Of a stretch of DNA of 64,000 bases, positions 3,390-60,713 are shown piece by piece. The notes beneath the pieces are model-generated. The model saw only the letters and a program-made list of their open reading frames with translations. It did no database searches and was not told the DNA's origin. Source of the DNA: Deltaproteobacteria bacterium (GTDB taxonomy: Bacteria > UBA10199 > JACPAL01); the NCBI GenBank assembly GCA_016180845.1, contig JACPAK010000001.1, positions 225,707 to 289,706 of the forward strand, written 5' to 3'. Numbering within the stretch: position 1 is the stretch's first letter; each line of letters starts with the position of its first letter. A program made the position numbers and the translations under genes.

Positions 3390-3677
3390 TTATGGCGCCC
3401 CATTCGTTCCATGACAAGCGGCACAACCAGAAACCCCTTCTTGAAGGGCATGATCGTGTACCACCTCAATATCCACAAGCCCGCCGGTACGATCGATCAA
3501 GTGGATGTTATCCAGATTATGACAGGTGGTGCAGTCGCTCCGTCCCCAACCGATCTCATGCTCCGATTCTGTAAGAGCAAGCCCTTCCGGTGAATCCAAC
3601 AGGTTTCCGTAATTTTCCCCCTGATTGACGACACTCCCGCAGGAGATGAAGAACAACAAACCGAAGATTATTATCAT
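3390..3677 (-). CDS. Diheme cytochrome c lipoprotein
   Basis: Signal peptide with an LFFISC lipobox-like Cys, then CTTCH and CAACH heme motifs. ATGA overlap with the upstream heptaheme gene. Confidence 0.7.
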   Translation of the reverse strand: MIIIFGLLFFISCGSVVNQGENYGNLLDSPEGLALTESEHEIGWGRSDCTTCHNLDNIHLIDRTGGLVDIEVVHDHALQEGVSGCAACHGTNGAP

Positions 3678-9419: not shown

Positions 9420-10274
9420 ATGTATACAATATTGAAAAAAGAGGTCTTTTCCCCAACAACATTCCTTTGGGAGGTCTTGGCACCTGATATTGCTCATGCG
9501 GCAAGGGCAGGCCAGTTTGTCATGGTCCACCTCAACTCCTATGGGGAAAGGATCCCGCTCACCATCGCGGATTTTGATCGGGAAAAAGGAACGATCACGC
9601 TTGTCGTCAAGGTAGTCGGAAAAACGACCGAGGAGATGTCGACCTATGCTGAAGGAGCGACCTTTCTTGATCTGGTCGGACCGTTGGGGACACCAAGCCT
9701 GGTCGAGCCACTCAACCATGTCGTCCTCGTCGGGGGAGGGATCGGCATCGCCCCACTTTTGCCTATCCTGAGGGAATTCCGAGAGACCGGAAGTTATGTC
9801 ACCGTCATCGTCGGTTTCAGGACAATGGGAGAGATTTTCTGGAAAGCTCGATTTGAAAAACTCGCCCACCAACTCGTTTTGATGACCGAAGACGGTTCCT
9901 CAGGAGAAAAGGGGACGGTGATTGATGGTCTGAAAAAAATCCTTTCCGAGGAAACCCCGATTGAAGAGGTCCTCGCGATCGGCCCGATCGGAATGATGCA
10001 GGCGGTCGCCGAAACAACCCGCCCCTGGGAAATACCGACGTTCGTCTCGATGAATCCGATCATGGTGGATGGGATCGGAATGTGTGGTTCGTGTCGTGTG
10101 AAGGTTGGCGACAAAATTCTTTTTGCCTGTGTCGATGGACCGGACATGAATGGTCACCTGGTTGATTTCAAAGAACTGAAGACCCGGCAAATCCGATTCT
10201 TCAATGAAGAGCAAAGATGCCTGAAGGCCTATCATGAGAGGCAGCCTCCGCTCACCCAAGGAGGGTCGAGATGA
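9420..10274 (+). CDS. PyrK-like FAD/NAD(P)-binding 2Fe-2S oxidoreductase subunit (NfnA / sulfide dehydrogenase SudB family)
   Basis: Ferredoxin-NADP reductase fold with the C-terminal GMCGSCRV…FACVDGP 2Fe-2S motif. ATGA coupling to the downstream GltD-like gene. Confidence 0.75.
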   Translation: MYTILKKEVFSPTTFLWEVLAPDIAHAARAGQFVMVHLNSYGERIPLTIADFDREKGTITLVVKVVGKTTEEMSTYAEGATFLDLVGPLGTPSLVEPLNHVVLVGGGIGIAPLLPILREFRETGSYVTVIVGFRTMGEIFWKARFEKLAHQLVLMTEDGSSGEKGTVIDGLKKILSEETPIEEVLAIGPIGMMQAVAETTRPWEIPTFVSMNPIMVDGIGMCGSCRVKVGDKILFACVDGPDMNGHLVDFKELKTRQIRFFNEEQRCLKAYHERQPPLTQGGSR

Positions 10275-11845
10275 ATCGGGAAACAAAAAAATTAAACCCG
10301 AACCGGATCCCGATGCCGGAACTCCCGATCGATGCCCGACGTCTCCTCTTTGAAGAGGTCAACTGCGGTTATACGTTCGAAGAGGCCCAGGAAGAGGCGA
10401 CGCGGTGTCTCTTCTGCAAAAAACCGTTTTGTATCCAGGGCTGTCCCGTTGAGATTGATATCCCCGGCTTTATCAAAAAGATCGTCGAGGGGGATCTTCA
10501 TAGGGCCTATTCGATTCTCAGGGAATCCAACCCCCTGCCTGCCGTCTGCGGCCGTGTCTGTCCTCAAGAGACCCAATGCGAGGCACGATGTGTCGTTGGC
10601 AAGAAAGGAACTCCCGTAGCGATCGGGTGGCTCGAGCGATTTGTCGGAGATTGGGCGCTCCAGCAAGGCGAAGCACTCTCTGGTTTTTCTGCGTCGTCAG
10701 GTGCCTCCGCGGCGACCTTTAGGGCGCTAGCAGCCAATGAACCTTCTCGCACAAAACGCGAGTTTTCATTGTCTTCTAGCACTCCTAAAGGGCCCGCCGC
10801 TCCTGGCAATGCCGACTCGAAAATTCCAGAGAGTGCTTCGCCGCTGAAAATTGCCATCATCGGCTCCGGTCCCTCCGGTCTTGCCTGCGCCCAGGATCTG
10901 GCAACAGCCGGCATCGATGTCACTATTTTTGAGGCACTGCATGAAGCGGGTGGCGTCCTCTCCTATGGAATCCCCCCCTTTCGACTCCCGCGTTCGATCG
11001 TCGCGAAGGAGATCGATCAGCTCAAACATCTGGGAGTTCATTTTGAACTTAACAAGGTCATCGGAAAAATTTTCACGATTGAAGAACTTCTTCGGGAAAA
11101 AGATTTTCAGGCAGTCTTTATCGGCACCGGCGCCGGTCTCCCCAAATTTTTAGGGCTCCCGGGAGAACAACTGAATGGGGTGATGAGCGCTAATGAATTC
11201 CTGACGCGTCTTAACCTGATGGGGGGATATCGGAAGGCCGATACGCCGGTCGGGATGGGGAATCAGGTCACCGTCATCGGGGCCGGCAATACCGCCCTCG
11301 ACTCTGCGAGGATCGCCCTGAGACTCGGTGCTACAGTCACTGTCGTTTATCGCCGGACAGAGAGTGAGTCCCCTGCCCGTGCGGAGGAGCTCCGCCATGC
11401 GAAGGAGGAGGGGGTCCGGTTCGAATGGCTCACCAATCCTTTAGGATATCTCGGTGACGATCATCACTGTGTGCGAACGATGCGTTGCCTCCGAATGGCC
11501 TTGGGAGAACCGGATGAATCGGGCCGACGTTCCCCCCATCCTCTCCCCGGCACGGAATTTGAGATCCCCACAGATACCGTGATCTACGCCTTGGGAACCG
11601 TCGCCAATCCGATCATCGGCCGAAGCACCTTGGGCCTTAAAACAAACCGCTGGGGGTATATCGAAGTCGATCCGGAAACCGGCATGACCTCTCTTCCCGG
11701 TGTCTTTGCGGGTGGTGATATTGTGACCGGAGCGGCGACAGTCATCCAGGCGCTTGGAGCCGGAAGAAAGGCGGCGCGGGGAATTTTGCGTTACCTGAAT
11801 AAAGAGAATGTGAAGGAGGTGAGTTATGCCGTCGCAATGCCCTAA
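10271..11845 (+). CDS. Glutamate-synthase-small-subunit-like NAD(P)H oxidoreductase (NfnB/SudA/GltD family), carrying a roughly 60-aa low-complexity in-frame insertion
   Basis: N-terminal 2x[4Fe-4S] Cys motifs (CLFCKKPFCIQGCP, CGRVCPQETQCEARC). IAIIGSGPSGLACA dinucleotide-binding fold. C-terminal GGDIVTGAATVI. Confidence 0.8.
   Translation: MNRETKKLNPNRIPMPELPIDARRLLFEEVNCGYTFEEAQEEATRCLFCKKPFCIQGCPVEIDIPGFIKKIVEGDLHRAYSILRESNPLPAVCGRVCPQETQCEARCVVGKKGTPVAIGWLERFVGDWALQQGEALSGFSASSGASAATFRALAANEPSRTKREFSLSSSTPKGPAAPGNADSKIPESASPLKIAIIGSGPSGLACAQDLATAGIDVTIFEALHEAGGVLSYGIPPFRLPRSIVAKEIDQLKHLGVHFELNKVIGKIFTIEELLREKDFQAVFIGTGAGLPKFLGLPGEQLNGVMSANEFLTRLNLMGGYRKADTPVGMGNQVTVIGAGNTALDSARIALRLGATVTVVYRRTESESPARAEELRHAKEEGVRFEWLTNPLGYLGDDHHCVRTMRCLRMALGEPDESGRRSPHPLPGTEFEIPTDTVIYALGTVANPIIGRSTLGLKTNRWGYIEVDPETGMTSLPGVFAGGDIVTGAATVIQALGAGRKAARGILRYLNKENVKEVSYAVAMP
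10667..10842. repeat. A 176-bp imperfect palindrome inserted in frame into the NfnB-like gene
   Basis: Perfect 17-bp terminal inverted repeats: ggcgaagcactctctgg … ccagagagtgcttcgcc. Internal arms are also reverse-complementary (tttagggcgctagcagccaatgaa vs ttcattgtcttctagcactcctaaa). It encodes an S/A/P-rich linker absent from homologues. Confidence 0.7.
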
Positions 11846-19900: not shown

Positions 19901-20426
19901 TTATGTCTATGTCGACGCCAACCCTGCAGACCGACCCTACATTGGTTGGAAGCCGGACGACCCCTTTTATAAGGTGGCGCGTCTCATGCTCCGCGCGAAG
20001 TACAATCCGGCCTATCCCTATCACGTGATAATGATCAAACATGGGACATGGATCGCGACGGAAAAGACCGTCAAGGCCCACGAAACCCGTCCTGACGGCC
20101 GGGCGCTTTCGGAGACCGGCTACCAGGCAAATTTCCGGTACGGTTCCCAGCAAAGCATCACGCGCGAATGGGCGATGCCGATGCACCAAACCGACACCCT
20201 CTTTCACAAGGCAAGATTGGGGCAGAGGTTTCTCTTCGGCGGCGAGGCGGACAACCACATGATCAATACCGTCCCGAAGGAAACGCTGGTTCGCGTGGTC
20301 AAGGCGGAGGATGGCGGGCTCGGAGGCAAGGGAAAGTGGGAGGGTGCGACGACGGGCCACACGCCCGGAGATGAAAACAGAGAGATGCAGATCTATCTCG
20401 CAGGAAGGTTTATCAAAAATGGCTGA
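16977..20426 (+). CDS. nxrA: TAT-exported molybdopterin oxidoreductase alpha subunit, type II DMSO reductase family, nitrite oxidoreductase/nitrate reductase-like (NxrA/NarG family, periplasmic type)
   Basis: Twin-arginine signal (SRREFLKKAGLGAGA). FTFVCSPNDTHACRVRAF Fe-S/His motif of NarG-like enzymes. About 1150 aa, matching periplasmic NxrA. Confidence 0.75.
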   Translation: MSKIHPLSRREFLKKAGLGAGAYALLSSSTYAYLKPIVGVDNPLEFYPSRDWEKVYRDQYRYDSSFTFVCSPNDTHACRVRAFVRNGILVRTEQNYDVQRYSDLYGNKASPNWNPRMCPKGYTLAQRMYGPNRLKDPVVRKGWRAWVKDGCPYLTPELKKKYKFDSRGSDELQFIAWDEAYDLAARAMIAIATMYNGDEGAKRLAEEGYVPEMIQRMEGSGMRTLKYRGGMGLLGVIGKFGMYRFSNMMALVDSHLRGVEEKEAKGGRSWDNYTEHGDQAPGYPFVHGLQTSDCDFNDLRFTKLHIQCGKNLVENKMPESHWFIESIERGAKVVTITPEYSPPATKSDYWIPVRPASDAAIFLGIAKILIDRKWYDAEFVKKFTDLPLLVRTDNLKRLHAAEVFPGYQPGLSPEGASLKEQGLTKEQYGQLGDFVVRDTVSGDFKAVTRDDVGNHLKEKGIDPVLEWRGMVKMADGTTVETTTLWEAYKIHLKDYDLDTVAEVTQAPKGLIEQLAKDLATIKPAAIHMGEGINHWFHATEVNRATLLPLMLTGNIGQQGAGSFTWAGNYKSANFQAAPGVGAGLGVWVAEDPFHPTLDSKTPGKDVQVKNYALEEGASYWAHGDHPLIVETPKFGRKMFTGKTHMPSPTKGMWFTNVNHINNSKWAYQVIKNVLPTCNMIAVTDVELNGTIEYADIAFPASWWAEIENYEVTSSCSNPFLQIWKGSLKPPLNTKDDVQILAGVAKRLGEILGDRRFEDYWKFVHQKKTEVYIQRLLDASMTLHGYRFDDIITGKYGEPGAALMLYRTYPRIPFWEQVHEDKPFFTDTGRLNSYCDIPEAIEYGENFIVHREGPEATPYLPNAILSTNPLVRPEDYGIPPDDMEAEARHVRNIKMSWQQLKGTENPLWRQGFQFYCVTPKTRHTVHSQWSNVTWNRVWASNFADQLREDKRQPDAADHQVHINPQAAKDLGINDGDYVYVDANPADRPYIGWKPDDPFYKVARLMLRAKYNPAYPYHVIMIKHGTWIATEKTVKAHETRPDGRALSETGYQANFRYGSQQSITREWAMPMHQTDTLFHKARLGQRFLFGGEADNHMINTVPKETLVRVVKAEDGGLGGKGKWEGATTGHTPGDENREMQIYLAGRFIKNG

Positions 20427-20772
20427 AGAGGAAAACAAAGTGTCGGCGAGTGCAGGATCTGGCTTTGCCAGTCCGGAGCGAGAGGGGACCGGGGGGAAGG
20501 GGCCCTCTTCCGCTTGCGGAAGGGGCAGCGTTCCCCCCGATCCAGAAGACCCGTTTGAGATGGTCCAGCAGTTTATCGACGTGCCGGCGGATGACCGGTT
20601 CTACGATCAGATGGCCCGGACGTTCATCGAGGAATATTTAATGATGGGATGGAGTGACGAAGAAATCTTCAGTCTCTTTCAGGAACCTTTTTACAGAGGC
20701 ACGCATGATATTTTGCAAAAGAAGGGTGAGGCCTTCGTGAAGAGCCTGATCCATGAGGTGAGACATGGCTAA
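20419..20772 (+). CDS. Small hypothetical protein encoded between the alpha and beta subunits; low-complexity N-terminus
   Basis: The ATG overlaps the alpha stop codon. G/S/P-rich N-terminus, then a conserved-looking acidic helical segment. The ORF ends where the beta gene starts. Confidence 0.4.
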   Translation: MAEEENKVSASAGSGFASPEREGTGGKGPSSACGRGSVPPDPEDPFEMVQQFIDVPADDRFYDQMARTFIEEYLMMGWSDEEIFSLFQEPFYRGTHDILQKKGEAFVKSLIHEVRHG

Positions 20773-24324: not shown

Positions 24325-24501
24325 ATGCGTCTTGGACCTTGGGAAATAGCAGCGATTGTTGTTGTGGCCCTCTTGATCTTCGGCCCCTCGAAACTCCCGA
24401 AGCTTGGTCAGAGTTTGGCGGAGTTTTTCAGGAATTTCAAAAAAGGGGTCAAGGAGGTCGAGAAGGAAGGAGAAGAGATCAAGAAGAGTCTGACGCCCTG
24501 A
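24325..24501 (+). CDS. tatA: Twin-arginine translocase subunit TatA/E
   Basis: MRLGPWEIAAIVVVALLIFGPSKLPKLGQSLAEFFRNFKK. GGAGGAGG Shine-Dalgarno at the correct spacing. The ORF-track TTG start lies upstream. Confidence 0.8.
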   Translation: MRLGPWEIAAIVVVALLIFGPSKLPKLGQSLAEFFRNFKKGVKEVEKEGEEIKKSLTP

Positions 24502-24628
24502 ACTCTAGAATCCGATCCCTCCGACCTAAACCCCTCGAAGGGCATGGTCGCAGGGACGGGGTAGCGCGGGAAACGGCGCTGCCTCCCGATTCCCGCTTGC
24601 TGCGGGATGAATTGGAAAGGAGCCCGGT

Positions 24629-25846
24629 GTGATTTCCGCTCATGAAGCGCAAAACATTATCCTCGAAAAAACAAGCCGGCTTGGAAACGAAGAGGTCCCC
24701 CTGTCCCTGTCGCTGCACCGATACCTCGCAGAGCCGATCACTGCCCCGATCGATCTTCCACCCTTTGACAACGCCGCTATGGATGGCTTTGCAATTCAAA
24801 GTGGCGATACGAAAACTGCCTCGGCCCAAAACCCGGTCACATTAAAAGTTGTTGGGACAATCGCTGCTGGAGATGCTCCCTCTCAAGCCGTTCTCAAATC
24901 AGGCGAATATTTCCGAATCATGACGGGGGCTCCCGTTCCGGATGGTGCCGATGCCGTCGTGCCCTTTGAAGAGGCTGTTCACACCCCCCTTGAGGTAAGA
25001 ATCATAAAACCAGTTCCCTCAGGTTCCAATATCCGCCTTGCCGGTGAGGATGTAAAAAAGGATCAAAGGATTCTCGATGTCGGAGAAAAGATCACCTCTC
25101 GTACGATTGCGCTCCTGGCGGCATTAGGTGTTTATCGAATCCCGGTTTTCAGGCATCCGAACATCAAGATCCTCGTAACCGGAAGCGAACTCACCGCCGT
25201 CGGACACCCTCTGCACGATGGAAAGATCTATAACAGCAATGGCCCTGCACTGACGGCCGCGTTACAAGAAATCGATATTATCCCTCAAATAGTCGTCTCC
25301 TCCGCGGATGTCGTCTCTGATCTCAAAACCTTCTTCACAGCCTCAGAAGAGGCGGATGCGCTGATAACAATCGGGGCGGTTTCCACCGGCGATTTTGATT
25401 TTATCCCTCAGGTCCTGAAGGGGATCGGTGCCGAAATAGCCTTTCACAAGGTCTCCATAAAACCAGGCAAGCCGCTCCTCTTCGCCACTTGGAAAGGGAA
25501 ACCGATCTTTGGGCTCCCAGGGAATCCGGTCTCCGCCCTAATGGTTTTTGAGCGCTTTGTCCGACCGGCACTCCTCAAGATGATGGGGGCAAATAATTTT
25601 TTACGAAGACGAGGGATCGCGGTCGCTACCGAAACTCTGTCTGGGAGCTTGGGCAAGGAAAACTATCTCCGAGGAATCGTTGAATCGTCTGGCAATGGAT
25701 CCCATGCCCGCTCCGCCGGGAAGCAAGGATCAGCCCATCTTCTTCCACTCGCTCGAGCTAATGCGATCTTGATCGTCCCTCCTGAAAAAGAGGAGATCCG
25801 CGCCGGAGAAACAGTCGAATTCGAAACATTTTTGGAGGAACTATGA
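24629..25846 (+). CDS. moeA: Molybdopterin molybdotransferase MoeA
   Basis: MoeA N-terminal domain (…PFDNAAMDGFA…) and MoCF-binding region (GGVSTGDFD-like). GTG start with a GGAAAGGAG Shine-Dalgarno. Confidence 0.8.
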   Translation: MISAHEAQNIILEKTSRLGNEEVPLSLSLHRYLAEPITAPIDLPPFDNAAMDGFAIQSGDTKTASAQNPVTLKVVGTIAAGDAPSQAVLKSGEYFRIMTGAPVPDGADAVVPFEEAVHTPLEVRIIKPVPSGSNIRLAGEDVKKDQRILDVGEKITSRTIALLAALGVYRIPVFRHPNIKILVTGSELTAVGHPLHDGKIYNSNGPALTAALQEIDIIPQIVVSSADVVSDLKTFFTASEEADALITIGAVSTGDFDFIPQVLKGIGAEIAFHKVSIKPGKPLLFATWKGKPIFGLPGNPVSALMVFERFVRPALLKMMGANNFLRRRGIAVATETLSGSLGKENYLRGIVESSGNGSHARSAGKQGSAHLLPLARANAILIVPPEKEEIRAGETVEFETFLEEL

Positions 25847-35004: not shown

Positions 35005-35141
35005 ATGACCAAGTCCGGGTACCCGCCTGCGGCGGGTGGATTGCGGCGACCGAACCGGGGCGCCCGCTAAGGTGGGCCGGTGAGGAAGTACCCGAAGGCA
35101 AGAGCCGGAGGGTAAAATGGTTGGAAACGGAGTCGGAAACC
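35005..35141 (+). promoter_or_regulatory. GC-rich structured 5-prime leader upstream of the M20/AstA cluster; candidate riboswitch-like element
   Basis: Perfect hairpin ACCCGCC-UGC-GGCGGGU. Repeated ACCGAA/CCCGAAGG and GGAAAC motifs. GGAGGGUAAAAUGG resembles the guanidine-I (ykkC) conserved region. The class is not assignable without a covariance model. Confidence 0.3.
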
Positions 35142-36530
35142 ATGTCATGGAACCTCATCGAAGAAGCCAAAAAAATCATCGGGATCCGATCCTTGACCAA
35201 TGAGGGAACTCGAGCATTGGCCGAGCACCTTGTCCCCCTTTGCCGACAGGCAGGCCTCCAGATAACCCTTCGGCCCCCTTCCAAACCAACCGGTTTTGAT
35301 GAGCTGAATCTGATCGCACATACAGTACCGGACGGATCGGAAGATCTCTGTCCAAATGGGCTCTTGATGGTCACCCACCTCGATACCGTCCCGGCCGGAG
35401 ACCCTGCCTTATGGACAGAGACGTCAGGGAAACCTTTTCAGGCAACAATCAAAGGGGATAAAATCTATGGCCTCGGAAGTGCCGATACGAAGCTTGATTT
35501 TCTCTGCAAGCTAAAGGCGATCGAAGAGGTCGGCGTCAAAAACATCAAGATCCCCCTCTGCCTCGTCGGTTCCTACGGGGAAGAACGGGCGCTCGCCGGG
35601 ATTAAAGAACTGCGTCTTTCGGGGAGGGTCAAACCCCGTTTTGCATTAATCGGGGAGCCATCTGAATTAAAGCCGGTGCTGAAGCATAAGGGGATTTTGT
35701 ATATGCAAGCTTGTTTTGATTTGAAGGGCGGGTGGCTCGGGTCGGGCGCCCGCCCGCGCGCAACGGGTGAGCACGGGTGGGCGGAACCCGAGACAGGACC
35801 CGCCCTTGTGAAAACCAACATTTTTCATGGCCGCGCTGCGCATGGCTCGACCCCCCACCTCGGTGAAAACGCGATCTTTAAGGCGTTCGAGTGGCTCTTC
35901 GAGGAACAGAAAAAAAATCCGCTCATTCAATTGGCCGAAATCAACGGCGGGACGGTACATAATATTGTCCCTGAAACCTGTATGCTGAAAACTACTAGCG
36001 GAGAAAAACCATGCCCACGGATCGAATTCCTGAAGACCTTTTGGGGCCTTTATCAGACAGCGCAGGAAAGATTAGGAGAAAACACCGACTCGCTTTTTGA
36101 TCCACCAATCACCACGGGCAACGTCGGCGTCTTAAAGACAAAAGAAGATCGGATAGAGATGGAATTTGATTTTCGGTTAATCCCCGCCACGAATGGGAAT
36201 GAACTGTTCGAGATCTTTCAAAAAATTTCCCATCTTTCGGGTGCCTCACTTGAGGTAATCTCCTCAAATCCGCCGATGGATACTTCGGAGAGGTCGGAAA
36301 TTGTCCGGCATGTCTCTTCTTCATTAAAAGAGATCGGTCTTCCCGTGGAGTTTCATGCGAAGGCGGGGAATACAGAAGGGGCGATCGTGAGTCAGATGGG
36401 GGCTGAGGCGATCGTGATTGGCCCGGGACGTTCTACGGGAAACATCCATAAGCCGAATGAGTCGAATGAAATCTCGCAATTGAAAAAGGCGGTTGAGTTC
36501 TATGGGGTCCTTTTGAGGAGGTTTTGCTAA
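35142..36530 (+). CDS. M20-family metallopeptidase/deacylase (ArgE/DapE/ACY1-like desuccinylase or deacetylase)
   Basis: Metal-binding motifs HLDTVPAGD and GSADTK. Contains an 84-bp in-frame palindromic insertion. Confidence 0.7.
   Translation: MSWNLIEEAKKIIGIRSLTNEGTRALAEHLVPLCRQAGLQITLRPPSKPTGFDELNLIAHTVPDGSEDLCPNGLLMVTHLDTVPAGDPALWTETSGKPFQATIKGDKIYGLGSADTKLDFLCKLKAIEEVGVKNIKIPLCLVGSYGEERALAGIKELRLSGRVKPRFALIGEPSELKPVLKHKGILYMQACFDLKGGWLGSGARPRATGEHGWAEPETGPALVKTNIFHGRAAHGSTPHLGENAIFKAFEWLFEEQKKNPLIQLAEINGGTVHNIVPETCMLKTTSGEKPCPRIEFLKTFWGLYQTAQERLGENTDSLFDPPITTGNVGVLKTKEDRIEMEFDFRLIPATNGNELFEIFQKISHLSGASLEVISSNPPMDTSERSEIVRHVSSSLKEIGLPVEFHAKAGNTEGAIVSQMGAEAIVIGPGRSTGNIHKPNESNEISQLKKAVEFYGVLLRRFC
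35724..35807. repeat. An 84-bp GC-rich imperfect palindrome inserted in frame into the M20 peptidase gene
   Basis: Terminal inverted repeats aagggcgggt … acccgccctt, with inner arms sharing ctcgggt and ccgccc. It encodes GGWLGSGARPRATGEHGWAEPETGPAL, a sequence not seen in M20 enzymes. Confidence 0.6.
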
Positions 36531-36531
36531 T

Positions 36532-37404
36532 ATGAGCTTTCTCATCCGACCTGCCAGCTTGCCAGATACCGGGGATCTTCTCCGTCTCTCGTCATCCCTC
36601 TCAGCCAGAGGTTTCCTGACCCTCCCTGCGGATACGAAGGGGATTGAACATCTGATCAAGCTTTCCAGCCGATCCTTTTCCAACCAGTTGGATGACAGAG
36701 ATGAAGGGGAATACCTTTTTGTTTTGCGAGATAAAGATCAGGAAAAGATTATCGGATGCTCACTGATCATTGCCCGTCATGGAACTCCGGAGTCACCCCA
36801 CAACTATTTTGAGGTGCTCAAGGTTCAGAAGGCATATCGACGTCTGAACAAGGTCTTCAAGCACCAAATCTTGCGACTCCGCCTCGATGCGGAGGGGAGT
36901 ACCGAGCTGGGTGGCTTGATCCTCGATCCCGCCTATCGGGGCCACCCCGAAAAATTGGGGAAACAGATCTCTTTCGTAAGATTTCTGTACATTCATCGTC
37001 ACCCCGAAAAATTTATGGATCGTCTGCTCGTCGAACTCCTCCCTCCACTCACGCCGGATGGGAAGTCACTTTTTTGGGAATCACTTGGCAGGAAGTTTAC
37101 GGAAGTCGATTATCATGAAGCGGACCGTATTTCTCGAGAGGACAAAAGCTTCATCACCTCTCTCTTTCCTGAAGGAGATCTCTACGCTAACTTTTTGCCG
37201 GATGAGGCTCGTGCACTGATCGGTGAAGTCGGCCCAGAAACAAAACCGGTAGCCAAGATGTTAGAGGAGATCGGATTCACCTATCTTAGTCAGATCGATC
37301 CGTTTGATGGAGGTCCACATTACGGCGCGATGAAACAGTCGATCAAGATCGACAAGGTTGAATCCCTTTTTAACAAAAGTTCACTGAAGATAGAAATCGA
37401 TTAA
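36532..37404 (+). CDS. astA: Arginine N-succinyltransferase (AstA) family acyltransferase
   Basis: Block-wise match to E. coli AstA: IRP…, VLRDKDQEKIIGCSLII, LILDPAYRGHPEKLGKQISFVRFLYI, LFWESLGRKF, IDPFDGGPH. Confidence 0.7.
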   Translation: MSFLIRPASLPDTGDLLRLSSSLSARGFLTLPADTKGIEHLIKLSSRSFSNQLDDRDEGEYLFVLRDKDQEKIIGCSLIIARHGTPESPHNYFEVLKVQKAYRRLNKVFKHQILRLRLDAEGSTELGGLILDPAYRGHPEKLGKQISFVRFLYIHRHPEKFMDRLLVELLPPLTPDGKSLFWESLGRKFTEVDYHEADRISREDKSFITSLFPEGDLYANFLPDEARALIGEVGPETKPVAKMLEEIGFTYLSQIDPFDGGPHYGAMKQSIKIDKVESLFNKSSLKIEID

Positions 37405-37412
37405 GGAAACCT

Positions 37413-38399
37413 ATGTCACACGCGATCCTGATGGGCGACCCAACACATTTTCATATCTCAGGAGGGGCGAATCCTTTCACGAGAGACTGGTGGGGCCGCA
37501 GAAAGTTTGTTGATCAGACGAAGGCAGCCGAGCAGTGGAGACAACTCGCTCGAGTTTTGACCGACTTCGGCATCCAGGTCTTTGTCATCCCCTCTTCTCC
37601 GAATAATCCTGGCCTCGTCTACCCTGCCAATGCCGGTTTTTTGAGTCAGCTTGAGGAAAAAATTCCGATCCAAAAAAAGAAATTCATCCTCTCCAATCTC
37701 CTCCCCTCCAGGGCGGGGGAATGCCCGATCTATCGCGACTTTTTAAGAGGGCTCGGCTTCGCCGTCGTCACGATTAAACACCGCTTCGAAGGAGAGGCGG
37801 AACTTTTCCCCGTCGGTTCGGAACATATTTTTACCTACGGAGGGGTTGTGAAACAACGTTTCACCCCAAAACTTGGACTCCCCCCCTGGAAACGGGTCTA
37901 TGGCTTTCGCACGGAACGGGACGCCCTTCAGGAGCTCCGTCCCTATCTCGGTGTTTCCGCAGTCCATGATTTTGAATTGCTGCAGGAGTCCCACTATCAC
38001 GGCGACACTATCTTTTGTTCTTTTGGTGAAAAACGGGAATTCTTGCTCGTCTATCTGGAAGGACTCGCCCCCGAATCCCGCGAGAGGTGCGTCAAGATCT
38101 TCGGGGATCGACTAATCCCTCTCTCCACACGAGATGCCTTTTTCTATGCGACAAACTCCTTTCAGGTTCGAACCAAGGAAGGTTTGAAACTGATTGTCCC
38201 TGAAGGAGCCAGTCATATTCTTTTGAAAGAAATTGAAACGCGTGGTGTTCAACCTTTCCCGATCAATGTCTCCGAATTTTTAAAAAAGGGGGGCGGTGCA
38301 GTGAAATGTATGATCGGAGATTTGGGGGAGTTGATCGATGAGACGAGTCAAGTGACTCCATCGATACAAAAATTTCGAGAAGAACACCTATTTCGTTGA
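37413..38399 (+). CDS. Amidinotransferase-superfamily hydrolase (AstB/arginine-deiminase/DDAH-like) with a C-terminal catalytic Cys
   Basis: C-terminal GGGAVKCM catalytic-Cys motif characteristic of guanidino-group-modifying enzymes. 328 aa. Confidence 0.55.
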   Translation: MSHAILMGDPTHFHISGGANPFTRDWWGRRKFVDQTKAAEQWRQLARVLTDFGIQVFVIPSSPNNPGLVYPANAGFLSQLEEKIPIQKKKFILSNLLPSRAGECPIYRDFLRGLGFAVVTIKHRFEGEAELFPVGSEHIFTYGGVVKQRFTPKLGLPPWKRVYGFRTERDALQELRPYLGVSAVHDFELLQESHYHGDTIFCSFGEKREFLLVYLEGLAPESRERCVKIFGDRLIPLSTRDAFFYATNSFQVRTKEGLKLIVPEGASHILLKEIETRGVQPFPINVSEFLKKGGGAVKCMIGDLGELIDETSQVTPSIQKFREEHLFR

Positions 38400-38430
38400 C
38401 AATAGCTCACCAGAAAATCAATAATAAATC

Positions 38431-39549
38431 ATGTCGCGAAACGGCACAGCACCTGAGATAGAAAGTTTACCGCTGATTCATCTCAAAGATCCCATCAAGA
38501 AGAAGGAAAAGAAAAATATCCTCTCGGAAGAGATTCGACCGATCGATCTTGAAAAAACAAAAACGATCGCCGATCTGATCGAGGCGTTCGGAGGGATGTC
38601 GATCCAGGCGAGGCGGATCGGTCAGTGTGCGGAGGTGCTGCGGAATCTCTATGCCGACAAGGATCGGCCCACTGTCTTTCTGGGACTTGCGGGTCCCTTG
38701 ATCGCTGCCGGTTTAAGAAAAGTGATCCGTGACATGATTGCGTATGGTCTCGTCGATGTCGTCGTCTCTACAGGGGCGATCATCTATCAGGATGTTTATC
38801 AGGCGCGTGGTTACCGTCATTATAAAGGATCCCCAAACGCTGACGACGCCAAGCTGCGGGATCATTATATTGACCGCATTTACGACACCTACGTCGATGA
38901 GGAAAAATTTTGGGAGACCGATTGTTGGGTCGGGAAATTTGCCGACACACTTCCTCCGGGCAATTACTCCTCACGAGCCTTCCTGGAAAAGCTTGGTTCC
39001 GTCTTGAAAGACGAGGACTCTTTCTTGGCAACCGCTGTCAAAAAAGGAGTTCCCGTTTTTGCGCCGGCCATCAATGATTCCTCGATCGGGATCGGACTGA
39101 CCGAACATTACCATCGTTGTTCTCAAGAGGGGCGCAAGGGACTTTCGATTGATTCGATTCGTGATAACTACGAACTCACCCAGATTGTTGAGAAATCCAA
39201 AAAGACCGCCGCCTTTTATGTCGCCGGGGGGGTCCCGAAGAACTATATTAATGATAGCGTCGTCATGTGCTACATCTTTGGCCGTGAGACTGGAGGTCAT
39301 ACCTATGCCCTCCAAATCACGACCGATGTCCCACATTGGGGTGGGCTCTCTGGAAGCACACTCGAAGAGGCGACCTCGTGGGGAAAGATCAATGCGAAAT
39401 CAACCCGCGCGATGGCGTTTGTGGAACCGTCCGTCGCCCTCCCCCTGCTGGTCGGATATTGCCTCCAAAAAGAGCTGACCAAAAATCGAAAATCGCTCCT
39501 GCTGCAGTGGGAAAAAGACAGGCTAAATACCTTGAAAGTTTCTCCTTAA
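38431..39549 (+). CDS. Deoxyhypusine synthase-like protein (DHS/homospermidine synthase family)
   Basis: DHS-family blocks STGAIIYQDV, VFAPAINDSSIG and AGGVPKNYI (NAD-binding). Confidence 0.7.
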   Translation: MSRNGTAPEIESLPLIHLKDPIKKKEKKNILSEEIRPIDLEKTKTIADLIEAFGGMSIQARRIGQCAEVLRNLYADKDRPTVFLGLAGPLIAAGLRKVIRDMIAYGLVDVVVSTGAIIYQDVYQARGYRHYKGSPNADDAKLRDHYIDRIYDTYVDEEKFWETDCWVGKFADTLPPGNYSSRAFLEKLGSVLKDEDSFLATAVKKGVPVFAPAINDSSIGIGLTEHYHRCSQEGRKGLSIDSIRDNYELTQIVEKSKKTAAFYVAGGVPKNYINDSVVMCYIFGRETGGHTYALQITTDVPHWGGLSGSTLEEATSWGKINAKSTRAMAFVEPSVALPLLVGYCLQKELTKNRKSLLLQWEKDRLNTLKVSP

Positions 39550-45184: not shown

Positions 45185-45215
45185 AGGGGCATCCCGCGTC
45201 GCGGGATGCCCCAAT
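45185..45215 (+). terminator. Rho-independent terminator after glnA
   Basis: Perfect hairpin GGGGCATCCCGCG/CGCGGGATGCCCC followed by a U-rich stretch. Confidence 0.6.
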
Positions 45216-53411: not shown

Positions 53412-55835
53412 TTGGGAGGTGGAGTGGCTGTCAGAGGCCCAGGAGAGACCTATTATCAAACCCCTACCCTTGCTCGGCCTGAATATTTTGGGACCCCTTT
53501 CACAACCGGCGAACTGCTTCGTTGGCCTCCCTCACAGCTCCTCGACGTACCATTAAGTACGCCTGCGTCGCGTTCGGTCGGCCTGCCTCGCATTTCATCC
53601 GGTTTTGAAAGTTATCCTTTTACGCATCCTCAAGAGACTCCACCAGCATTACCAGTAAAAACCCTCTCCGCAGGAGAAACCCTCGGCATCGCCCTCTCAG
53701 TGGGGGCCCTCGCCACGACATTTGTTGCCCCTCGCTACGGAACCCCACTCATGATCGGGGCGATGGTTTTTCAATTCTTCTGGCCGGCGCAGGCGGAGGC
53801 GCAAGAAAGAGAGAAACAGTGGCGACCTGCCTCCTGTGAAAAAGAGAAAACGATCAAGGAAGAACCTTATTGGGTTCATATTGCGATCGGTTCCGTGGTC
53901 GGAGGGATTGCGATCCGCTTTGGGCTTGTCCCACACACAAAGTTTTTCCAGGGACTTTTCAAGGACCGCCAGAGAGTTAAGACGCTTCTTTTTGGAAAGG
54001 AATGGGAAGTCAAGCCGTATCATAACGGTTTTTGGAATAAAAATCCGGCGATGAGGTTTTTGAACTGGCTGGCCCACCACTGGGGCGCTATTGCCCTCCC
54101 GACTGTTGCGATCGAGATCGCCGCCCGAAAGGCGGTTGGGTATGAACATGAACTCTCACCTCTCGGAGGACTCACGCTGATGCTCTTTTGGAATCGGATC
54201 GGGACACAGCACCTCGGTGCCGATAAGTCAGGAAGCCACATGCTTCTGATTATTGATCGTCTCTACGACGTGATGATCCAGCACCAGTCGAGCCAGCCAT
54301 TGAACGATACAAACTGGTGGTATGTGGCGAATCGTTACGGGGCGATCAGTCTCGTCTGTGGCAGTTACCGTGCCCGCCACCTTCGTGACTGGCTCTCGAA
54401 GAGACGGAGTCAAAAATTCCTCAGGTCGGTCTGGGTTGAATCAGGCGAGGGGCGGTCCCCCACACTCGTTTATGAAGGAGGTCTTCACAAGGTCTCTCTC
54501 TGGGGCCACCAAAGACGGGCCAAGGATTATCAGTGGTGGATGAAGACACTCGATTGGGTATCAGAAACTCGGGTTGGAAAGTTCCTCAGAATCAAAGGAG
54601 CCCCCCATCCAAATCTGGAGCGACGGCTCCGGGACAACCAGGCCCGTCTGATTTCTGAAGATGAGAGTCAGCTTGTCAAAAAACTTCTGGCTTCGAGCAA
54701 CCAGAACAACACCGTTTGGGTCGATGAAATGGGTCGTCTTTGTGAGAGAGATACTGGAAGAGTTCTTGGGGATCTCCTTCTCTCGGAACGAAGGGCAAGG
54801 CTCACGAAGCTCATGGGTGGACCCGATTTCGCCTCTCTAAAAGCCTTAGGAAGTGATCTTTCCCCCAAACAGAGGGACATGCTCACAACAATGATGGGCG
54901 GGACTGAATTCTCATCATTATTTACAGAAGGGGTCGGGACAGGGGTTGTCAGGCTTGGTGCGCAAAGATTCCGTCAAGTGAAGATTGGCAGTCAATTCGG
55001 CGGAGGGGGATTCATGCTCTACTGGTTCTTGCAGGAGGTGGCGACAGCACCGGTCGTCATCGGTGCCGCCTGGCTGCTCTGCGGAGAGGATTTGTGGCAG
55101 AATGCGCAATTTTCAATCATCAGGGCCCCTCTGACGATTCCCAGACTCTTCCTCCGTTACCGGTTGGGAGTTGACACCGCACCCGCGATGATTTTTGACC
55201 GTGTCTGGAAATATGCGACAGAACCGTACATCTCGAAGATGTTTCCACTCCTCGCGAGTCAGGGACTTTTCCGAAAGAAATATCACGCTGAGGCGATCTG
55301 TGCCGATTCGCTTGATCAGTTTGCCAATTACCATATCGGCCCCCATGTCGTACATGGCGGTCTTGGGAGTTACAACCGTCATGTCGCTAATCTCGACCAT
55401 CTGGCGGAGACGGTCGCCCCTCTCTTGAAACGGGTCGATTTCTCCGGTCCTTCCCCCTACTCGCCTGTTGGCATCTCGTATCAATTGCTCGCAAAATATT
55501 ATGTGGGCGAACAGGACGGCGATTACACAGGATTAAGCCTGGAGGAGGTGGGCGGGGTCGAACATCATTTGGGAGAACTCATTGAAGAGGCGAAACGACG
55601 ACTTCGAGGTGAGGTGCGCAGGGAGTTATTGACGTACCAAGATAGCACCGTCATCGAGCTCGCGATGGCCTTGTCTGTCGCCGCCTATTATGCCAATTAC
55701 CAGGACCACAAGAGGTTTGAGAGGCTCGTACAGGAACATCAGGACTGGTTCCGGCAGTTTGAGTCGGTTGGAAAGGATCTGGACACGCTTGAAGACTATG
55801 TCGATTCTATCTCTTCCACTCAAGCTTCGCTTTAA
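53412..55835 (+). CDS. Hypothetical protein (about 700-800 aa), unknown family; start uncertain
   Basis: Long ORF with no identifiable domain. Possible true start at the ATG near 53751. Confidence 0.4.
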   Translation: MGGGVAVRGPGETYYQTPTLARPEYFGTPFTTGELLRWPPSQLLDVPLSTPASRSVGLPRISSGFESYPFTHPQETPPALPVKTLSAGETLGIALSVGALATTFVAPRYGTPLMIGAMVFQFFWPAQAEAQEREKQWRPASCEKEKTIKEEPYWVHIAIGSVVGGIAIRFGLVPHTKFFQGLFKDRQRVKTLLFGKEWEVKPYHNGFWNKNPAMRFLNWLAHHWGAIALPTVAIEIAARKAVGYEHELSPLGGLTLMLFWNRIGTQHLGADKSGSHMLLIIDRLYDVMIQHQSSQPLNDTNWWYVANRYGAISLVCGSYRARHLRDWLSKRRSQKFLRSVWVESGEGRSPTLVYEGGLHKVSLWGHQRRAKDYQWWMKTLDWVSETRVGKFLRIKGAPHPNLERRLRDNQARLISEDESQLVKKLLASSNQNNTVWVDEMGRLCERDTGRVLGDLLLSERRARLTKLMGGPDFASLKALGSDLSPKQRDMLTTMMGGTEFSSLFTEGVGTGVVRLGAQRFRQVKIGSQFGGGGFMLYWFLQEVATAPVVIGAAWLLCGEDLWQNAQFSIIRAPLTIPRLFLRYRLGVDTAPAMIFDRVWKYATEPYISKMFPLLASQGLFRKKYHAEAICADSLDQFANYHIGPHVVHGGLGSYNRHVANLDHLAETVAPLLKRVDFSGPSPYSPVGISYQLLAKYYVGEQDGDYTGLSLEEVGGVEHHLGELIEEAKRRLRGEVRRELLTYQDSTVIELAMALSVAAYYANYQDHKRFERLVQEHQDWFRQFESVGKDLDTLEDYVDSISSTQASL

Positions 55836-56838
55836 CAATTTCACCTCCCCACAAAGAACCCCTTGGGGAGGGACCCGAATCGCCGATCTCAAAAATCATC
55901 TAGGAGTCGCCGAGGGAACCATCATCGGCGAGTCGTGGGAGATCTCTGGACACCCAGAACTTCCAAGCCATGTTGGCATGACTTCATTGAACGAGCTGAT
56001 ACGACAAGATCCGATCTCCTTATTAGGGCAAAGGATTGTTGATCGCTTCGGCCCCGAACTTCCGTTTTTGGTCAAACTGCTGGACACCCGAGATTGGCTC
56101 TCGGTCCAGGTCCACCCAAAGGCCGATTATCCCGGTCTGAAACCTGGCGAGCATTCCAAAAATGAGGCGTGGGTTATTCTCGAAACTTCACAAAATCCCC
56201 CCAATCCCCCTTTGTCAAAGGGGGGCAAAGGGGGATTTTCCCCATCGGGTATCTATTTTGGCTTTAAAGAAGGCGTTACTCGAAAAGATGCCCAATCGGC
56301 ATTAGAGGATGGGAGCGACCTGACCCGATTTTTGAATTTTGTTCCCGTTCAGCCAGGCGATGTCTACTTCGTCCAGGCCGGTGTCCCGCATGCGATCGGA
56401 CCTGGACTTTTTCTCTACGAAATTCAAGAGACCTCTTCAACGACCTACCGCTATTTTGATTTCAATCGGAGAGATAAAAATGGGAACCCGCGTCAGCTCC
56501 ACAAAGAAGACGCCGTCGCCGCAACCGACTGGAATCTTCCTTGGGGAGGGAAACTCCTCTCGCAGTTAAAAATTGAGCCTTATGGAAATCGCCTCTTATC
56601 GACCCCGTATTTTGAGGTCTCAAAGATCGAATTGAAAAGGGGGGCGACTGCCACAGGGGATTCTTCGGGAGGATTTCATGGAATCACCGTTCTCAAGGGT
56701 GAGCTGAGAATTAAAACTACCTCTTCCCAAATCCAGATGAACCAGGGGGAATCAGCGATCATCCCAGCCGCTGTGGGGCGCTACAGCATCATTTCGTCAA
56801 CTCCAGAGTCATTTACCCTCCTGGCCAAGATTCCTTAA
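55798..56838 (+). CDS. manA: Mannose-6-phosphate isomerase, class I (cupin), carrying a 51-bp in-frame palindromic insertion
   Basis: Aligns block-wise with B. subtilis ManA: WGG, ESWEISGHP, LSVQVHP, NEAWVILE, PGDVYFVQAGVPHAIG, YRYFDFNRRDKNGNPRQLH. Confidence 0.8.
   Translation: MSILSLPLKLRFNNFTSPQRTPWGGTRIADLKNHLGVAEGTIIGESWEISGHPELPSHVGMTSLNELIRQDPISLLGQRIVDRFGPELPFLVKLLDTRDWLSVQVHPKADYPGLKPGEHSKNEAWVILETSQNPPNPPLSKGGKGGFSPSGIYFGFKEGVTRKDAQSALEDGSDLTRFLNFVPVQPGDVYFVQAGVPHAIGPGLFLYEIQETSSTTYRYFDFNRRDKNGNPRQLHKEDAVAATDWNLPWGGKLLSQLKIEPYGNRLLSTPYFEVSKIELKRGATATGDSSGGFHGITVLKGELRIKTTSSQIQMNQGESAIIPAAVGRYSIISSTPESFTLLAKIP
56191..56240. repeat. A 50-bp nested hairpin (palindrome) inserted in frame into manA
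   Basis: aaaatccccc…ccccctttg-t-caaaggggg…gggggatttt. It encodes NPPNPPLSKGGKGGFSP, which is absent from homologues. Confidence 0.6.
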
Positions 56839-59288: not shown

Positions 59289-60713
59289 ATGTCTTTTTTA
59301 TCGAATTGGAGGCGGTTTTTTGTCATTCTTTTAGTCATCAGTGCCTTGCCTGTTAACTATCTTTACAGCCAAGAGACCCTCCCCTTTATCTTCCACTACG
59401 CCTCTGAAATTTCTACGATCGGCGAGCCTCCTCCCTATGAAGGGGCTGCGCCGATCAGAAGCAGCTCGGAATCGCTTCAAAATTATTTTACGCTCGAGAT
59501 CGATTCCCAACAGGTCGAGGCGATGCTTCAAAGGTTTCAGGGAGATCCTTCCATCCTCCAGTTCGAACCCAATTATCCGATTGAAAGTTCCTCGCTTCCT
59601 GCTGATCCCTTATTCCTGCGGTGGGAAAGCTTCTACAACTATGACCTCATGGAGATGGATCAGGCGTGGGAACTCTCAAACAGTTGCGAAGAGGTTCTTG
59701 TTGCTGTTTTGGATTCAGGAATCGAGCAAGATCATCCGGATCTCATAGAAACGATCTGGCACAATCCGAACGAGATCGCCGATAACGGACGTGATGACGA
59801 TGACAACGGATACATCGATGACGTCCAAGGGTATGACTTTTACAGCGATGACGCTGATCCAAACGATCTCACAGGACATGGGACAGAGGTCTCCGGAATC
59901 ATCGGTGCTGTTGCGGGCAATGACACCGGCCTCTCCGGAATTTGCTGGAAGGCGCAGATCCTCCCTCTGAAGATCTTTGGGAAAAATGGTGAAGGCCCCC
60001 TCTCAGCGGCGCTCGAGGCGATCGACTATGCAATCGCACGCAAGGTTCGGATCATTAATATGAGCTGGGCCCTCAAGTCAGGGGGACGAAGCGAAATCCT
60101 CGAGAAGGTAATCAAAAAAGGAAAAGAGAAGGGGATTTTTTTTGTCACCGCCGCCGGCAATGACGGTAAAAATCTGGATCAGGATCCTGTCTATCCGGCC
60201 AGCTATGACCTGCCGAATCTGATTGCTGTCGCCGCCCATGATGAGGAGGGTCGACTTGCCGATTTTTCAAATTATGGAAACTCCTCCGTCCTGATCGCTG
60301 CCCCTGGTGTGGATGTCCTCACGACAGGTCTTGGGAATCGTTATGTCAAATTCAGTGGGACAAGCGCCGCCACACCGCATGCGAGTGGTGTTGCCGCGTT
60401 ACTACTGGCCCTCAACCCGAACCTCTCTCCCTCAAGATTGAAAACCCTTTTTCTCGATCAGGCACTGCCAGAGGAAAACCTCTCCGGACAGATCCACTCC
60501 GGTGGCCGATTGAGTGCCTTGAAGCTTCTTCAGGCCTTGAACGTCGATTCCGATTCTCAAGAGGAAGGATTGCTTTCTGCCGATCCTGCCAATGAAGAGG
60601 ATGATGATAATAACCCCCCGGACACCCTTGCTGCCGGGGGTGGGGGAGGGTGCTCGCTGGTTCATGCGAAAACAAGAAATGTTTCAGCCCCCTCTCCCCA
60701 ACTTGATGTTTGA
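59289..60713 (+). CDS. Secreted subtilisin-like serine protease (peptidase S8)
   Basis: Signal peptide and a D/H/S triad in VAVLDSG, HGTEVSG and GTSAATPHASG. Pro-domain-like N-terminus. Confidence 0.8.
   Translation: MSFLSNWRRFFVILLVISALPVNYLYSQETLPFIFHYASEISTIGEPPPYEGAAPIRSSSESLQNYFTLEIDSQQVEAMLQRFQGDPSILQFEPNYPIESSSLPADPLFLRWESFYNYDLMEMDQAWELSNSCEEVLVAVLDSGIEQDHPDLIETIWHNPNEIADNGRDDDDNGYIDDVQGYDFYSDDADPNDLTGHGTEVSGIIGAVAGNDTGLSGICWKAQILPLKIFGKNGEGPLSAALEAIDYAIARKVRIINMSWALKSGGRSEILEKVIKKGKEKGIFFVTAAGNDGKNLDQDPVYPASYDLPNLIAVAAHDEEGRLADFSNYGNSSVLIAAPGVDVLTTGLGNRYVKFSGTSAATPHASGVAALLLALNPNLSPSRLKTLFLDQALPEENLSGQIHSGGRLSALKLLQALNVDSDSQEEGLLSADPANEEDDDNNPPDTLAAGGGGGCSLVHAKTRNVSAPSPQLDV

Follow-up and report, generated by a model that had tools for sequence, protein, structure and literature searches.

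The window analysed here is a stretch of 64,000 nucleotides (nt) from contig JACPAK010000001.1, part of a metagenome-assembled genome (MAG) labelled Deltaproteobacteria bacterium, and our subject is a GC-rich foldback element of 84 nt that lies in frame inside one of its genes, an M20-family deacylase. The host gene corresponds to the plus-strand open reading frame (ORF) 35121/35142-36530, with matches to Pfam Peptidase_M20 and M20_dimer and, at scores below their cut-offs, to the ArgE/DapE NCBIfam models. Its product is 100% identical to P0001 (MBI2082192.1, 462 amino acids, labelled "MAG: Deltaproteobacteria bacterium"), and the closest other protein shows 73-76% identity. The gene is the first of a conserved cluster, M20 - AstA - DDAH-like (- deoxyhypusine synthase): at 35142-39549 of the window the M20 deacylase is followed by an AstA-like arginine N-succinyltransferase and a DDAH/amidinotransferase-like gene, in an order kept in the orthologous loci L001-L005 and L087-L089, and a deoxyhypusine synthase-like gene comes after this trio in the window and in L001. 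The gene order suggests an arginine- or polyamine-related pathway. The parts of the locus on which the argument turns are given below, L082 being a contig that carries a relative of the element.

35142 to 36530, plus strand: host gene, M20 ArgE/DapE-like deacylase (Pfam Peptidase_M20 and M20_dimer)
35724 to 35807, plus strand: GC-rich foldback element, 84 nt, encoding in frame the peptide KGGWLGSGARPRATGEHGWAEPETGPAL, residues 195-222 of the 462-residue M20 protein
35726 to 35742, plus strand: left basal arm GGGCGGGTGGCTCGGGT, made up of outer stem, GG bulge and second stem; identical in L082
35743 to 35785, plus strand: apical module with its own imperfect hairpin CGCCCGCCCG / CGGGTGGGCG, including one G-T pair; variable between relatives
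35786 to 35805, plus strand: right basal arm ACCCGAGACAGGACCCGCCC, made up of second stem, ACAGG bulge and outer stem; identical in L082

The full sequence of the element is AAGGGCGGGTGGCTCGGGTCGGGCGCCCGCCCGCGCGCAACGGGTGAGCACGGGTGGGCGGAACCCGAGACAGGACCCGCCCTT. The first-pass annotation had described a GC-rich palindrome of 84 bp, set in frame into the M20 gene and bounded by terminal inverted repeats that enclose partly complementary arms, and this description is borne out. The 84 nt amount to exactly 28 codons of the M20 ORF, with a GC content of 0.77 (up to 0.83 in 60-nt windows) compared with 0.5175 for the window as a whole. The terminal repeats AAGGGCGGGT and ACCCGCCCTT are complementary at 10/10 positions, and the arm pairs nested between them at 90% and 82%. 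Folding, in which a lack of palindromic structure would have refuted the observation according to the same annotation, gives a strongly palindromic structure: as single-stranded DNA the element reaches -35.2 kcal/mol against -22.1 +/- 2.5 for dinucleotide shuffles (z = -5.3; 0/200 as stable), and with RNA parameters it is the most stable 100-nt segment in the 64 kb, at -60.8 kcal/mol (mean -24.6, sd 6.1). Fold stability is equal on both strands. Covariance model R1, on the other hand, scores 97.7 bits on the plus strand and 33.6 bits on the minus strand, so the orientation of the window element is defined.

Comparison with homologues places the insert precisely. In an alignment of 36 sequences it sits between the conserved blocks HKGILYMRAV.. 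and F.GRAAHGSTPHLGENAI, and none of the 35 aligned M20 homologues contains the 28-residue peptide, whose presence there the first-pass annotation had named as grounds for refutation. The earlier claim that the insert interrupts well-conserved M20 sequence holds only in part. The flanks are indeed well conserved and the peptide is absent from homologues, but the site itself is a variable loop, which differs in length and sequence in almost every aligned homologue and is occupied by other palindromes in orthologues. The nearest homologue (76% identity) has 14 residues where the window has 28, with a net loop difference of 15 residues; the net gain is 15 rather than 28 because this closest homologue itself holds a different, shorter palindrome in the loop. 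An AlphaFold model of the M20 protein built from the same alignment has a mean predicted local distance difference test score (pLDDT) of 90.4; scores fall below 50 only at residues 197-219, which connect the strands 184-193 and 224-229. On this basis the insert is predicted to form the disordered tip of a beta-hairpin where the dimerisation domain begins.

The element is not confined to the M20 gene. When it was translated in six frames and the concatenated peptides were searched against a collection of 5.8 billion proteins, two proteins matched, both in frame +0. One is P0241 (MBI2083089.1; 27/28 identical), a YggS-family pyridoxal phosphate enzyme that reads AIGK-SGWLGSGARPRATGEHGWAEPETGPAL-IHWHFIGHLQ across the insert, and the other is P0242 (MBI2082998.1, locus tag HYT76_05460; 25/28 identical), a GcvT/YgfZ-like protein that reads GLS-SGGWLGSGARPRATGEHGWAESETGPA-AKCY. 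Compared with the solved structure 7YGF, the YggS protein has 34 residues where the structure has 11, and the alignment resumes directly after the element. Judged from the peptides, the YggS and GcvT-like copies share the apical module of the window element, and all three copies, that in M20 included, use the same one of five open frames. The three proteins are all labelled Deltaproteobacteria MAG, and the YggS and GcvT-like accessions lie within about 900 of that of the M20 protein; from these neighbouring numbers we infer that the copies share one MAG, in which the YggS and GcvT-like genes lie on separate contigs of 275 kb and 322 kb and the M20 gene on one of 805 kb. The count of at least three copies is a lower bound, since the peptide search missed the window's own M20 protein. 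Thus the element is, at the least, a dispersed repeat that interrupts three or more unrelated housekeeping genes in near-identical form and in the same frame. The first-pass annotation had left the choice between a family of foldback elements and a tolerated mechanism; the YggS and GcvT-like copies uphold the family, and for this element a tolerated mechanism that needs no repeat family is the less favoured reading.

The source being a MAG, and the element being far more GC-rich than its surroundings, it might be asked whether the insert is an artefact of assembly or binning, that is, a chimeric or foldback sequence produced during assembly or amplification. We regard this as extremely improbable, as the reading frame is continuous through the insert, both flanks align to homologues, two further genes on different long contigs contain the same insert in frame, and a relative is present in independent JGI and NCBI assemblies of another lineage, with dozens of orthologues.

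That relative was found by a scan of metagenomes with the pattern GGGCGGGTNNCTCGGGT N30-60 ACCCGAG N2-10 ACCCGCCC, in which 30 bases are specified. The scan returned a single match, at 8785-8855 on the minus strand of L082, a contig of 144 kb and 67.6% GC whose proteins are named Solirubrobacterales. Its arms (17 + 20 nt) agree with those of the window at 30/30 specified bases, and they also agree at 7 unspecified bases (GG and ACAGG) and in bulge length, which is more than palindromy alone would produce; two asymmetric bulges are common to the basal arms of both. The ends differ, being C/G in L082 where the window has AA/TT. The L082 interior is unrelated to that of the window, yet it also pairs (GGGAGGTGCC / GGCGCCTCCC), so that the two together show two conserved inverted arms around unrelated pairing interiors, the layout of REPINs, the hairpin-forming doublets of repetitive extragenic palindromic (REP) sequences. 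A covariance model of the window and L082 sequences scores 86.1 against 30.7 bits in L082, depending on orientation. The copy lies in frame in a gene for an 816-residue MMPL transporter, antisense to the coding orientation used in the window, and encodes RAGPVSGGRRLRWMLGTSHPSHPP. All four located copies, three in the MAG and one in L082, are therefore inside coding sequences. The combination of an element of 77% GC in a genome of 52% GC with identical arms in an actinobacterial lineage of 68% GC hints, from this single relative, at transfer of the element family between phyla.

Among 120 MMPL orthologues (P0121-P0240) the segment corresponding to L082 8783-8857 is hypervariable, and its flanks are conserved at 81-100% identity. 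The variants, read from protein sequences against a six-frame translation of the element, include the reverse-complement translation GRVARVGGAEHPAQAPPTRDRTRP of the same element (24/24 residues in P0177 and 23/24 in P0173), a third-frame reading of the same arms (GRVLSR...ATRP), mixtures with shifted frames (GRVARVRGMPSIQRRRPP...), a different interior between the same arms (RAGPV-AAGDPPSLPVAKASSGRGTLR-RHPP), and truncated forms in proteins of 800-807 residues. It would therefore appear, as far as protein sequences can tell, that at a single site the cassette inverts, changes frame and swaps its apical part.

The MMPL variants also bear on the idea that the 28-residue peptide is kept for a role in the protein, as an interaction or regulatory loop, with the palindromy of the DNA being incidental. 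The use of one and the same open frame by all three copies in the genome, and the hydrophilic, Gly/Ser/Glu/Pro-rich character of the peptide in that frame, would be in keeping with such a role. However, the model predicts a disordered insert (pLDDT below 50), the same peptide stands in three unrelated enzymes, the MMPL cassette is read in several frames and both orientations, and the orthologous M20 loops described below conserve DNA stems rather than peptides. A protein role is thus highly improbable.

In our judgement the element is probably a dispersed, non-autonomous foldback repeat resembling REPINs or MITEs (miniature transposable elements with inverted repeats), which survives inside genes in the way that the Rickettsia palindromic elements (RPEs) do. 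Such a repeat would consist of two conserved inverted basal arms and a variable, exchangeable apical hairpin. It would survive in genes by virtue of a length that is a multiple of three, a used frame that has no stop, and a permissive surface loop as its site; its GC richness would keep most frames stop-free, and selection would leave only those copies of multiple-of-three length that sit in permissive loops. Spread may take place by transposition or by copying as a single-stranded hairpin, and mobilisation could be due to an enzyme acting in trans, possibly one related to the Y1 transposases or the REP-associated tyrosine transposases (RAYTs).

The M20 loop itself is rarely free of palindromes among the orthologues. 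We compared the DNA of ten orthologous genes with that of the window, 11 M20 genes altogether, and found that in ten of them a palindrome starts at one shared codon position, following x-[FWY]-[DEN]; the loop of L090 has neither palindrome nor hairpin. Perfect stems of at least 8 bp number 8 in 1,014 nt of loops, compared with 8 in 13,872 nt elsewhere in these genes. The palindromes belong to at least three unrelated sequence types.

Type A: nested element CCCCTCACCC ... CCCTCTCCCC - loop - GGGGAGAGGG ... GGGTGAGGGG, complete in L003 and L005
Type C: palindrome with a GTAG head, GTAGGGGTTCAATATATTGAACCCCTAC in L006 and GTAGGGGCGTATTGCAATACGCCCCCAC in L089
Type D: the window element

Type A is also present without its 3' outer arm in L001 and L002 and without its 5' outer arm in L087, as an expanded form of about 100 nt with the same CCCTCTCCC/GGGAGAGGG arms in L004, and as a variant in L088. 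The palindromes in the loop range from 23 nt (L001 and L002) through about 60 nt (L003) and about 90 nt (L005) to about 100 nt (L004). In all three palindrome types the basal stems are conserved, and the apical stems differ but pair. The loop of L006 has 35% GC within a gene of 60% GC, and at 3580-3630 of that locus a partial tandem duplication (peptide EPLQNIEPLQ) follows the perfect 28-nt palindrome GTAGGGGTTCAATATATTGAACCCCTAC. A GTAG head is typical of REPs, and its presence at the 5' end of the L006 and L089 palindromes is a point of likeness to them. In E. coli and Salmonella, REP sites and bacterial interspersed mosaic elements (BIMEs) are shared between the two while their sequences are species-specific.

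The recurrent occupation of this loop could come about, under the dispersed-repeat explanation, in either of two ways. A resident palindrome may attract new ones, which we propose because REPs are known targets of other insertions (PMC3184786), or the loop may be the only site in the protein that tolerates them.

Nested palindromes of different sizes, from 23 to about 100 nt, at one site across orthologues might also be expected if a short quasi-palindrome in the loop grew in place, by template switching or hairpin-templated repair, with no mobile family involved; the MMPL inversions and frame-shifted mixtures, too, could come from template switching. Growth in place cannot, however, explain near-identical copies in two other genes, nor identical arms of 17 + 20 nt in another phylum, and no remnant of a type-A palindrome flanks the window element. 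It is largely refuted by the YggS and GcvT-like copies and the L082 arms, and we hold it to be very unlikely.

A more searching challenge comes from the type-A stems. The CCCTCTCCC/GGGAGAGGG stems are 100% identical in L001, L002, L003 and L005, in genes that share about 60% nucleotide identity and in which synonymous sites approach saturation (third-position identity 0.36-0.57 at identical codons). L005 reads the stem in another frame (PSPASGRG, as opposed to PLPQGER), which means that the DNA is conserved and not the peptide, and the type-A stem 9-mers occur nowhere else in the 69 kb of orthologue loci. Conservation of stems with no copies nearby is not what a purely selfish, decaying insert predicts, and it fits the dispersed-repeat explanation poorly. 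It speaks for the alternative that the hairpin itself is under selection at the M20 position, as an mRNA or single-stranded DNA structure that any stable hairpin could provide and whose sequence therefore turns over while the structure stays, acting for example in ribosome pausing at a domain boundary or in controlling the processing or stability of the operon transcript. Beyond the identical stems, which persist even through the frame difference in L005, and the absence of their 9-mers from the rest of the orthologue loci, this alternative would account for the occurrence of palindromes of three or more unrelated sequences at one codon position in ten of 11 orthologues, and for conserved basal stems combined with apical stems that differ yet pair in all three types.

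Against selection of the hairpin stands the presence of the element in the unrelated YggS, GcvT-like and MMPL genes, at positions that share no common logic. The type-A palindrome is likewise a dispersed repeat elsewhere: a Gemmatimonas MAG has two type-A composites within 8 kb (L048 1228-1290 and 2091-2160), CCCTCACCCC ... CCCCTCTCCCG-loop-CGGGAGAGGGG ... GGGGTGAGG, from which it follows that type A, too, is a dispersed family, and one that spans distant phyla. Moreover, the L090 orthologue does without a hairpin, the element belongs to no Rfam family and has no terminator-like tail, its fold is equally stable on both strands, and M20 genes are not known to use any mechanism involving such a site. 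We therefore consider a selected hairpin unlikely. Equally doubtful, if more far-reaching, is a combined scenario in which the M20 hairpin is a functional nucleic-acid element kept over long periods, its sequence being replaced again and again by whichever palindrome family is active in the lineage, and in which the family moves between phyla and flips in place. Were this so, proteins would carry "landing pads" where domestication gives selfish foldback elements a structural role as RNA or DNA.

Several further observations, in addition to the type-A stems, tell against a dispersed mobile repeat. The element is linked to no transposase, and tblastn found no Y1 transposase homologue in the 64-kb window. 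Neither a target-site duplication nor an empty site is established for it: TGAA occurs at 35722-35725 and at 35809-35812, with the right copy offset by 3 nt, and L082 shows no obvious duplication. Covariance model R1, run over the 64-kb window and 82 kb of related loci, found no further copy, the placing of the three proteins in a common MAG rests on accession numbers, and only one relative is known outside this genome, found with an exact-match pattern.

Other searches returned no relatives of the element. A scan of GTDB genomes with AAGGGCGGGT N44-74 ACCCGCCCTT gave 75 loci, none related beyond the 10-mers, in a collection that excludes the source MAG and with a pattern whose AA/TT ends would miss relatives like that in L082; the loci belong to other palindrome families such as GGGCGGGTTTGAAACCCGCCC. 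In viral contigs the left arm had 4 chance 17-mer matches lacking the right arm, and the right arm had 0 matches. Plasmids and phages searched by blastn yielded insignificant GC-rich matches only, and Rfam 15, in gathering and E-value modes, yielded only generic microRNA-hairpin noise far below threshold.

One segment of the window may nonetheless be related to the element.

35031 to 35107, plus strand: possible degenerate relative of the element (weak evidence), in the intergenic leader just upstream of the M20 start, about 70% GC

It shares with the element the collinear identical blocks (9- and 10-mers) GGCGGGTGG and GGGCGCCCGC, and its local alignment score of 22, the best of all GC-rich windows, compares with 12.1 +/- 2.3 for dinucleotide shuffles (6/2000 reach 22). 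Neither covariance model R1 nor Rfam gives a match here. The segment may be a decayed copy of the element or an unrelated leader structure.

Palindromes of other sequence interrupt further genes of the window. The first-pass annotation had seen the same phenomenon, with a different sequence, in the nfnB-like gene and in manA, and comparison with solved structures confirms that both are real insertions, unrelated in sequence. The nfnB-like gene (10271-11845, plus strand) encodes about 46 residues that Thermotoga NfnB (4YLF_B) lacks, located between the Fer4_20 and FAD domains. The DNA of this insert (10661-10846) is a foldback of about 176-186 nt with perfect 17-bp outer arms, GGCGAAGCACTCTCTGG / CCAGAGAGTGCTTCGCC, and a DNA fold of -58.9 kcal/mol (z = -9.0), and is far longer than its 76-nt core palindrome (10716-10791). 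Its peptide gave two weak low-complexity matches, and no evidence of a repeat, in a library of 50%-identity representatives that is poorly suited to the question. In manA (55690-56838, plus strand) a 48-nt palindrome at 56192-56239, AAAATCCCCCCAATCCCCCTTTGTCAAAGGGGGGCAAAGGGGGATTTT, coincides with an excess of exactly 16 residues over B. subtilis ManA (1QWR). A candidate for a fourth in-frame palindromic insert is the 50-nt palindrome of 76% GC at 20490-20539 (CGGGGGGAAGGGGCCC...GGGGCAGCGTTCCCCCCG), in the N-terminal part of a small ORF (20419-20772, plus strand; 117 residues, no Pfam match) directly after the gene for a molybdopterin oxidoreductase of 1150 residues. The palindromes in M20, the nfnB-like gene, manA and 20490-20539 are mutually unrelated in sequence; the genome therefore carries several intragenic palindrome families, at roughly one per 16 kb in the window.

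Among known systems, RPEs are in-frame insertions in unrelated metabolic genes that encode a conserved peptide (Ogata et al. 2000, 2002, via PMC10969869, PMC3184786). Like them, the element is a small palindromic multi-copy repeat that stands in frame in unrelated housekeeping genes, with a consistent frame and at fold-compatible sites. It differs in being 84 nt long rather than about 105-150 and strongly GC-rich, in having its interior swapped between relatives and occurring in both orientations at one MMPL site, and in its host, a free-living uncultured "Deltaproteobacteria" MAG, with a relative in Actinomycetota, and not Rickettsia. By analogy the element may be called RPE-like in kind; as the host is not one of the Rickettsiales, we do not claim membership in the Rickettsia families RPE-1 to RPE-10.

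REPINs have conserved inverted REP arms, a length of about 89 bp, and a spacer that is never identical between copies and always forms a hairpin (PMC3337134). The element shares with the REP/REPIN systems, which are associated with RAYTs of the Y1 type (PMC3337134, PMC3116915), the inverted arms, the variable hairpin spacer, a length of about 70-90 nt and the form of a bulged, imperfect hairpin. REPs and REPINs are, however, overwhelmingly extragenic and usually number in the hundreds, whereas every copy located here is intragenic, so that the element departs from them in this respect; the window element also lacks a GTAG head, and there is no RAYT in the 64-kb window. In addition, the REPIN-RAYT system is described as vertically inherited, whereas the identical arms of the element occur in two phyla.

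With MITEs the element has in common perfect terminal repeats of 10 bp and a length of 84 nt without a transposase gene, and intragenic MITEs such as ERIC, BOX and those of Anabaena (PMC10969869, PMC3184786) are similarly small, transposase-less stem-loops with terminal inverted repeats that are occasionally fused in frame. The exclusively intragenic copies in one frame are atypical of MITEs, and no target-site duplication or parent insertion sequence was identified here.

Yeast mitochondria provide another example, the GC clusters and "byp" elements, which are GC-rich mobile palindromes that invade the coding genes of an AT-richer genome. The byp elements are organellar; ribosomes skip over them, and they do not have to keep the frame. 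The element here differs in being in frame, with no stop codon and no sign of bypass signals, and translational bypass was rejected as unnecessary for an insert of this kind.

Three other identities were considered and rejected. An intrinsic terminator is a GC-rich hairpin followed by a run of T, and no terminator-like site occurs at the element on either strand, where the flanks are CTTGTGAAAACC and GCTTGTTTTGATTTG. Integron attC sites have the core sites R''/R' (RYYYAAC ... GTTRRRY) at the ends of an imperfect palindrome; the ends of the element, GGGCGGGT / ACCCGCCC, are not such core sites. An intein or intron reading of the insert was likewise rejected.

Palindromes translated in frame within proteins have been regarded as peculiar to Rickettsia, and their occurrence in a free-living uncultured bacterium extends the host range. 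The three in-frame palindromic inserts of the window (M20, nfnB-like and manA), together with those in the YggS and GcvT-like genes, make five host genes. Three aspects go beyond the textbook picture: orthologues differ in which of at least three unrelated palindrome families fills a single protein loop, the apical module is exchanged between relatives that keep the basal arms, and the same cassette is found in both orientations at one site among close orthologues. The system is tractable for asking how hairpin elements choose sites, or survive at them, and how they create new surface loops in enzymes, and it bears on whether some intragenic hairpins are retained for function. There is also a consequence for annotation, as such inserts distort homology searches; for each of the M20, NfnB and YggS proteins the hidden Markov model alignment is interrupted where the insert lies.

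Among the M20 orthologue loci, L001 has a Y1_Tnp gene (IS200-like, 292 residues) directly upstream of the M20 orthologue. This gene is bracketed by three palindromic repeats of about 33 nt (ACCAGAAAGTAACCGGTACCTTTTGGTC-like), at 4593-4626, 5067-5102 and 5868-5900, and the arrangement looks like a RAYT with its REPs. The transposase has no link to the M20-loop palindrome, since its own flanking repeats differ from the palindrome in the loop.

Other structures of the window deserve mention. A Moco/tungsten-cofactor riboswitch (RF01055, 51.8 bits; gathering score 36) lies at 24500-24636 on the plus strand, immediately upstream of the ORF at 24629-25846. At 60611-60710 there is a stable hairpin in the 3' end of the subtilase (Peptidase_S8) gene at 59289-60713, with arms (GGGGGAGGG ... 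CCCCCTCTCCCC) similar to the type-A palindrome that M20 orthologues carry. A perfect 13-bp GC-rich hairpin, GGGGCATCCCGCG-T-CGCGGGATGCCCC, at 45186-45212, just past the end of an ORF at 45172, is probably a terminator or another palindromic repeat.

Elsewhere, the terminal-repeat scan of GTDB genomes also met multi-copy foldbacks of about 84-94 nt in two unrelated MAGs: a family of about 91 nt in Anaerolineales UBA4823 (L016, L025, L026, L034, L056, L064 and L070) and another in Oscillospiraceae Hs463_bin108 (L017, L022, L032, L036, L069 and L080). Both have only the 10-nt termini AAGGGCGGGT / ACCCGCCCTT in common with the window element. The short palindrome GGGCGGGTTTGAAACCCGCCC(CTAC) recurs in many phyla.

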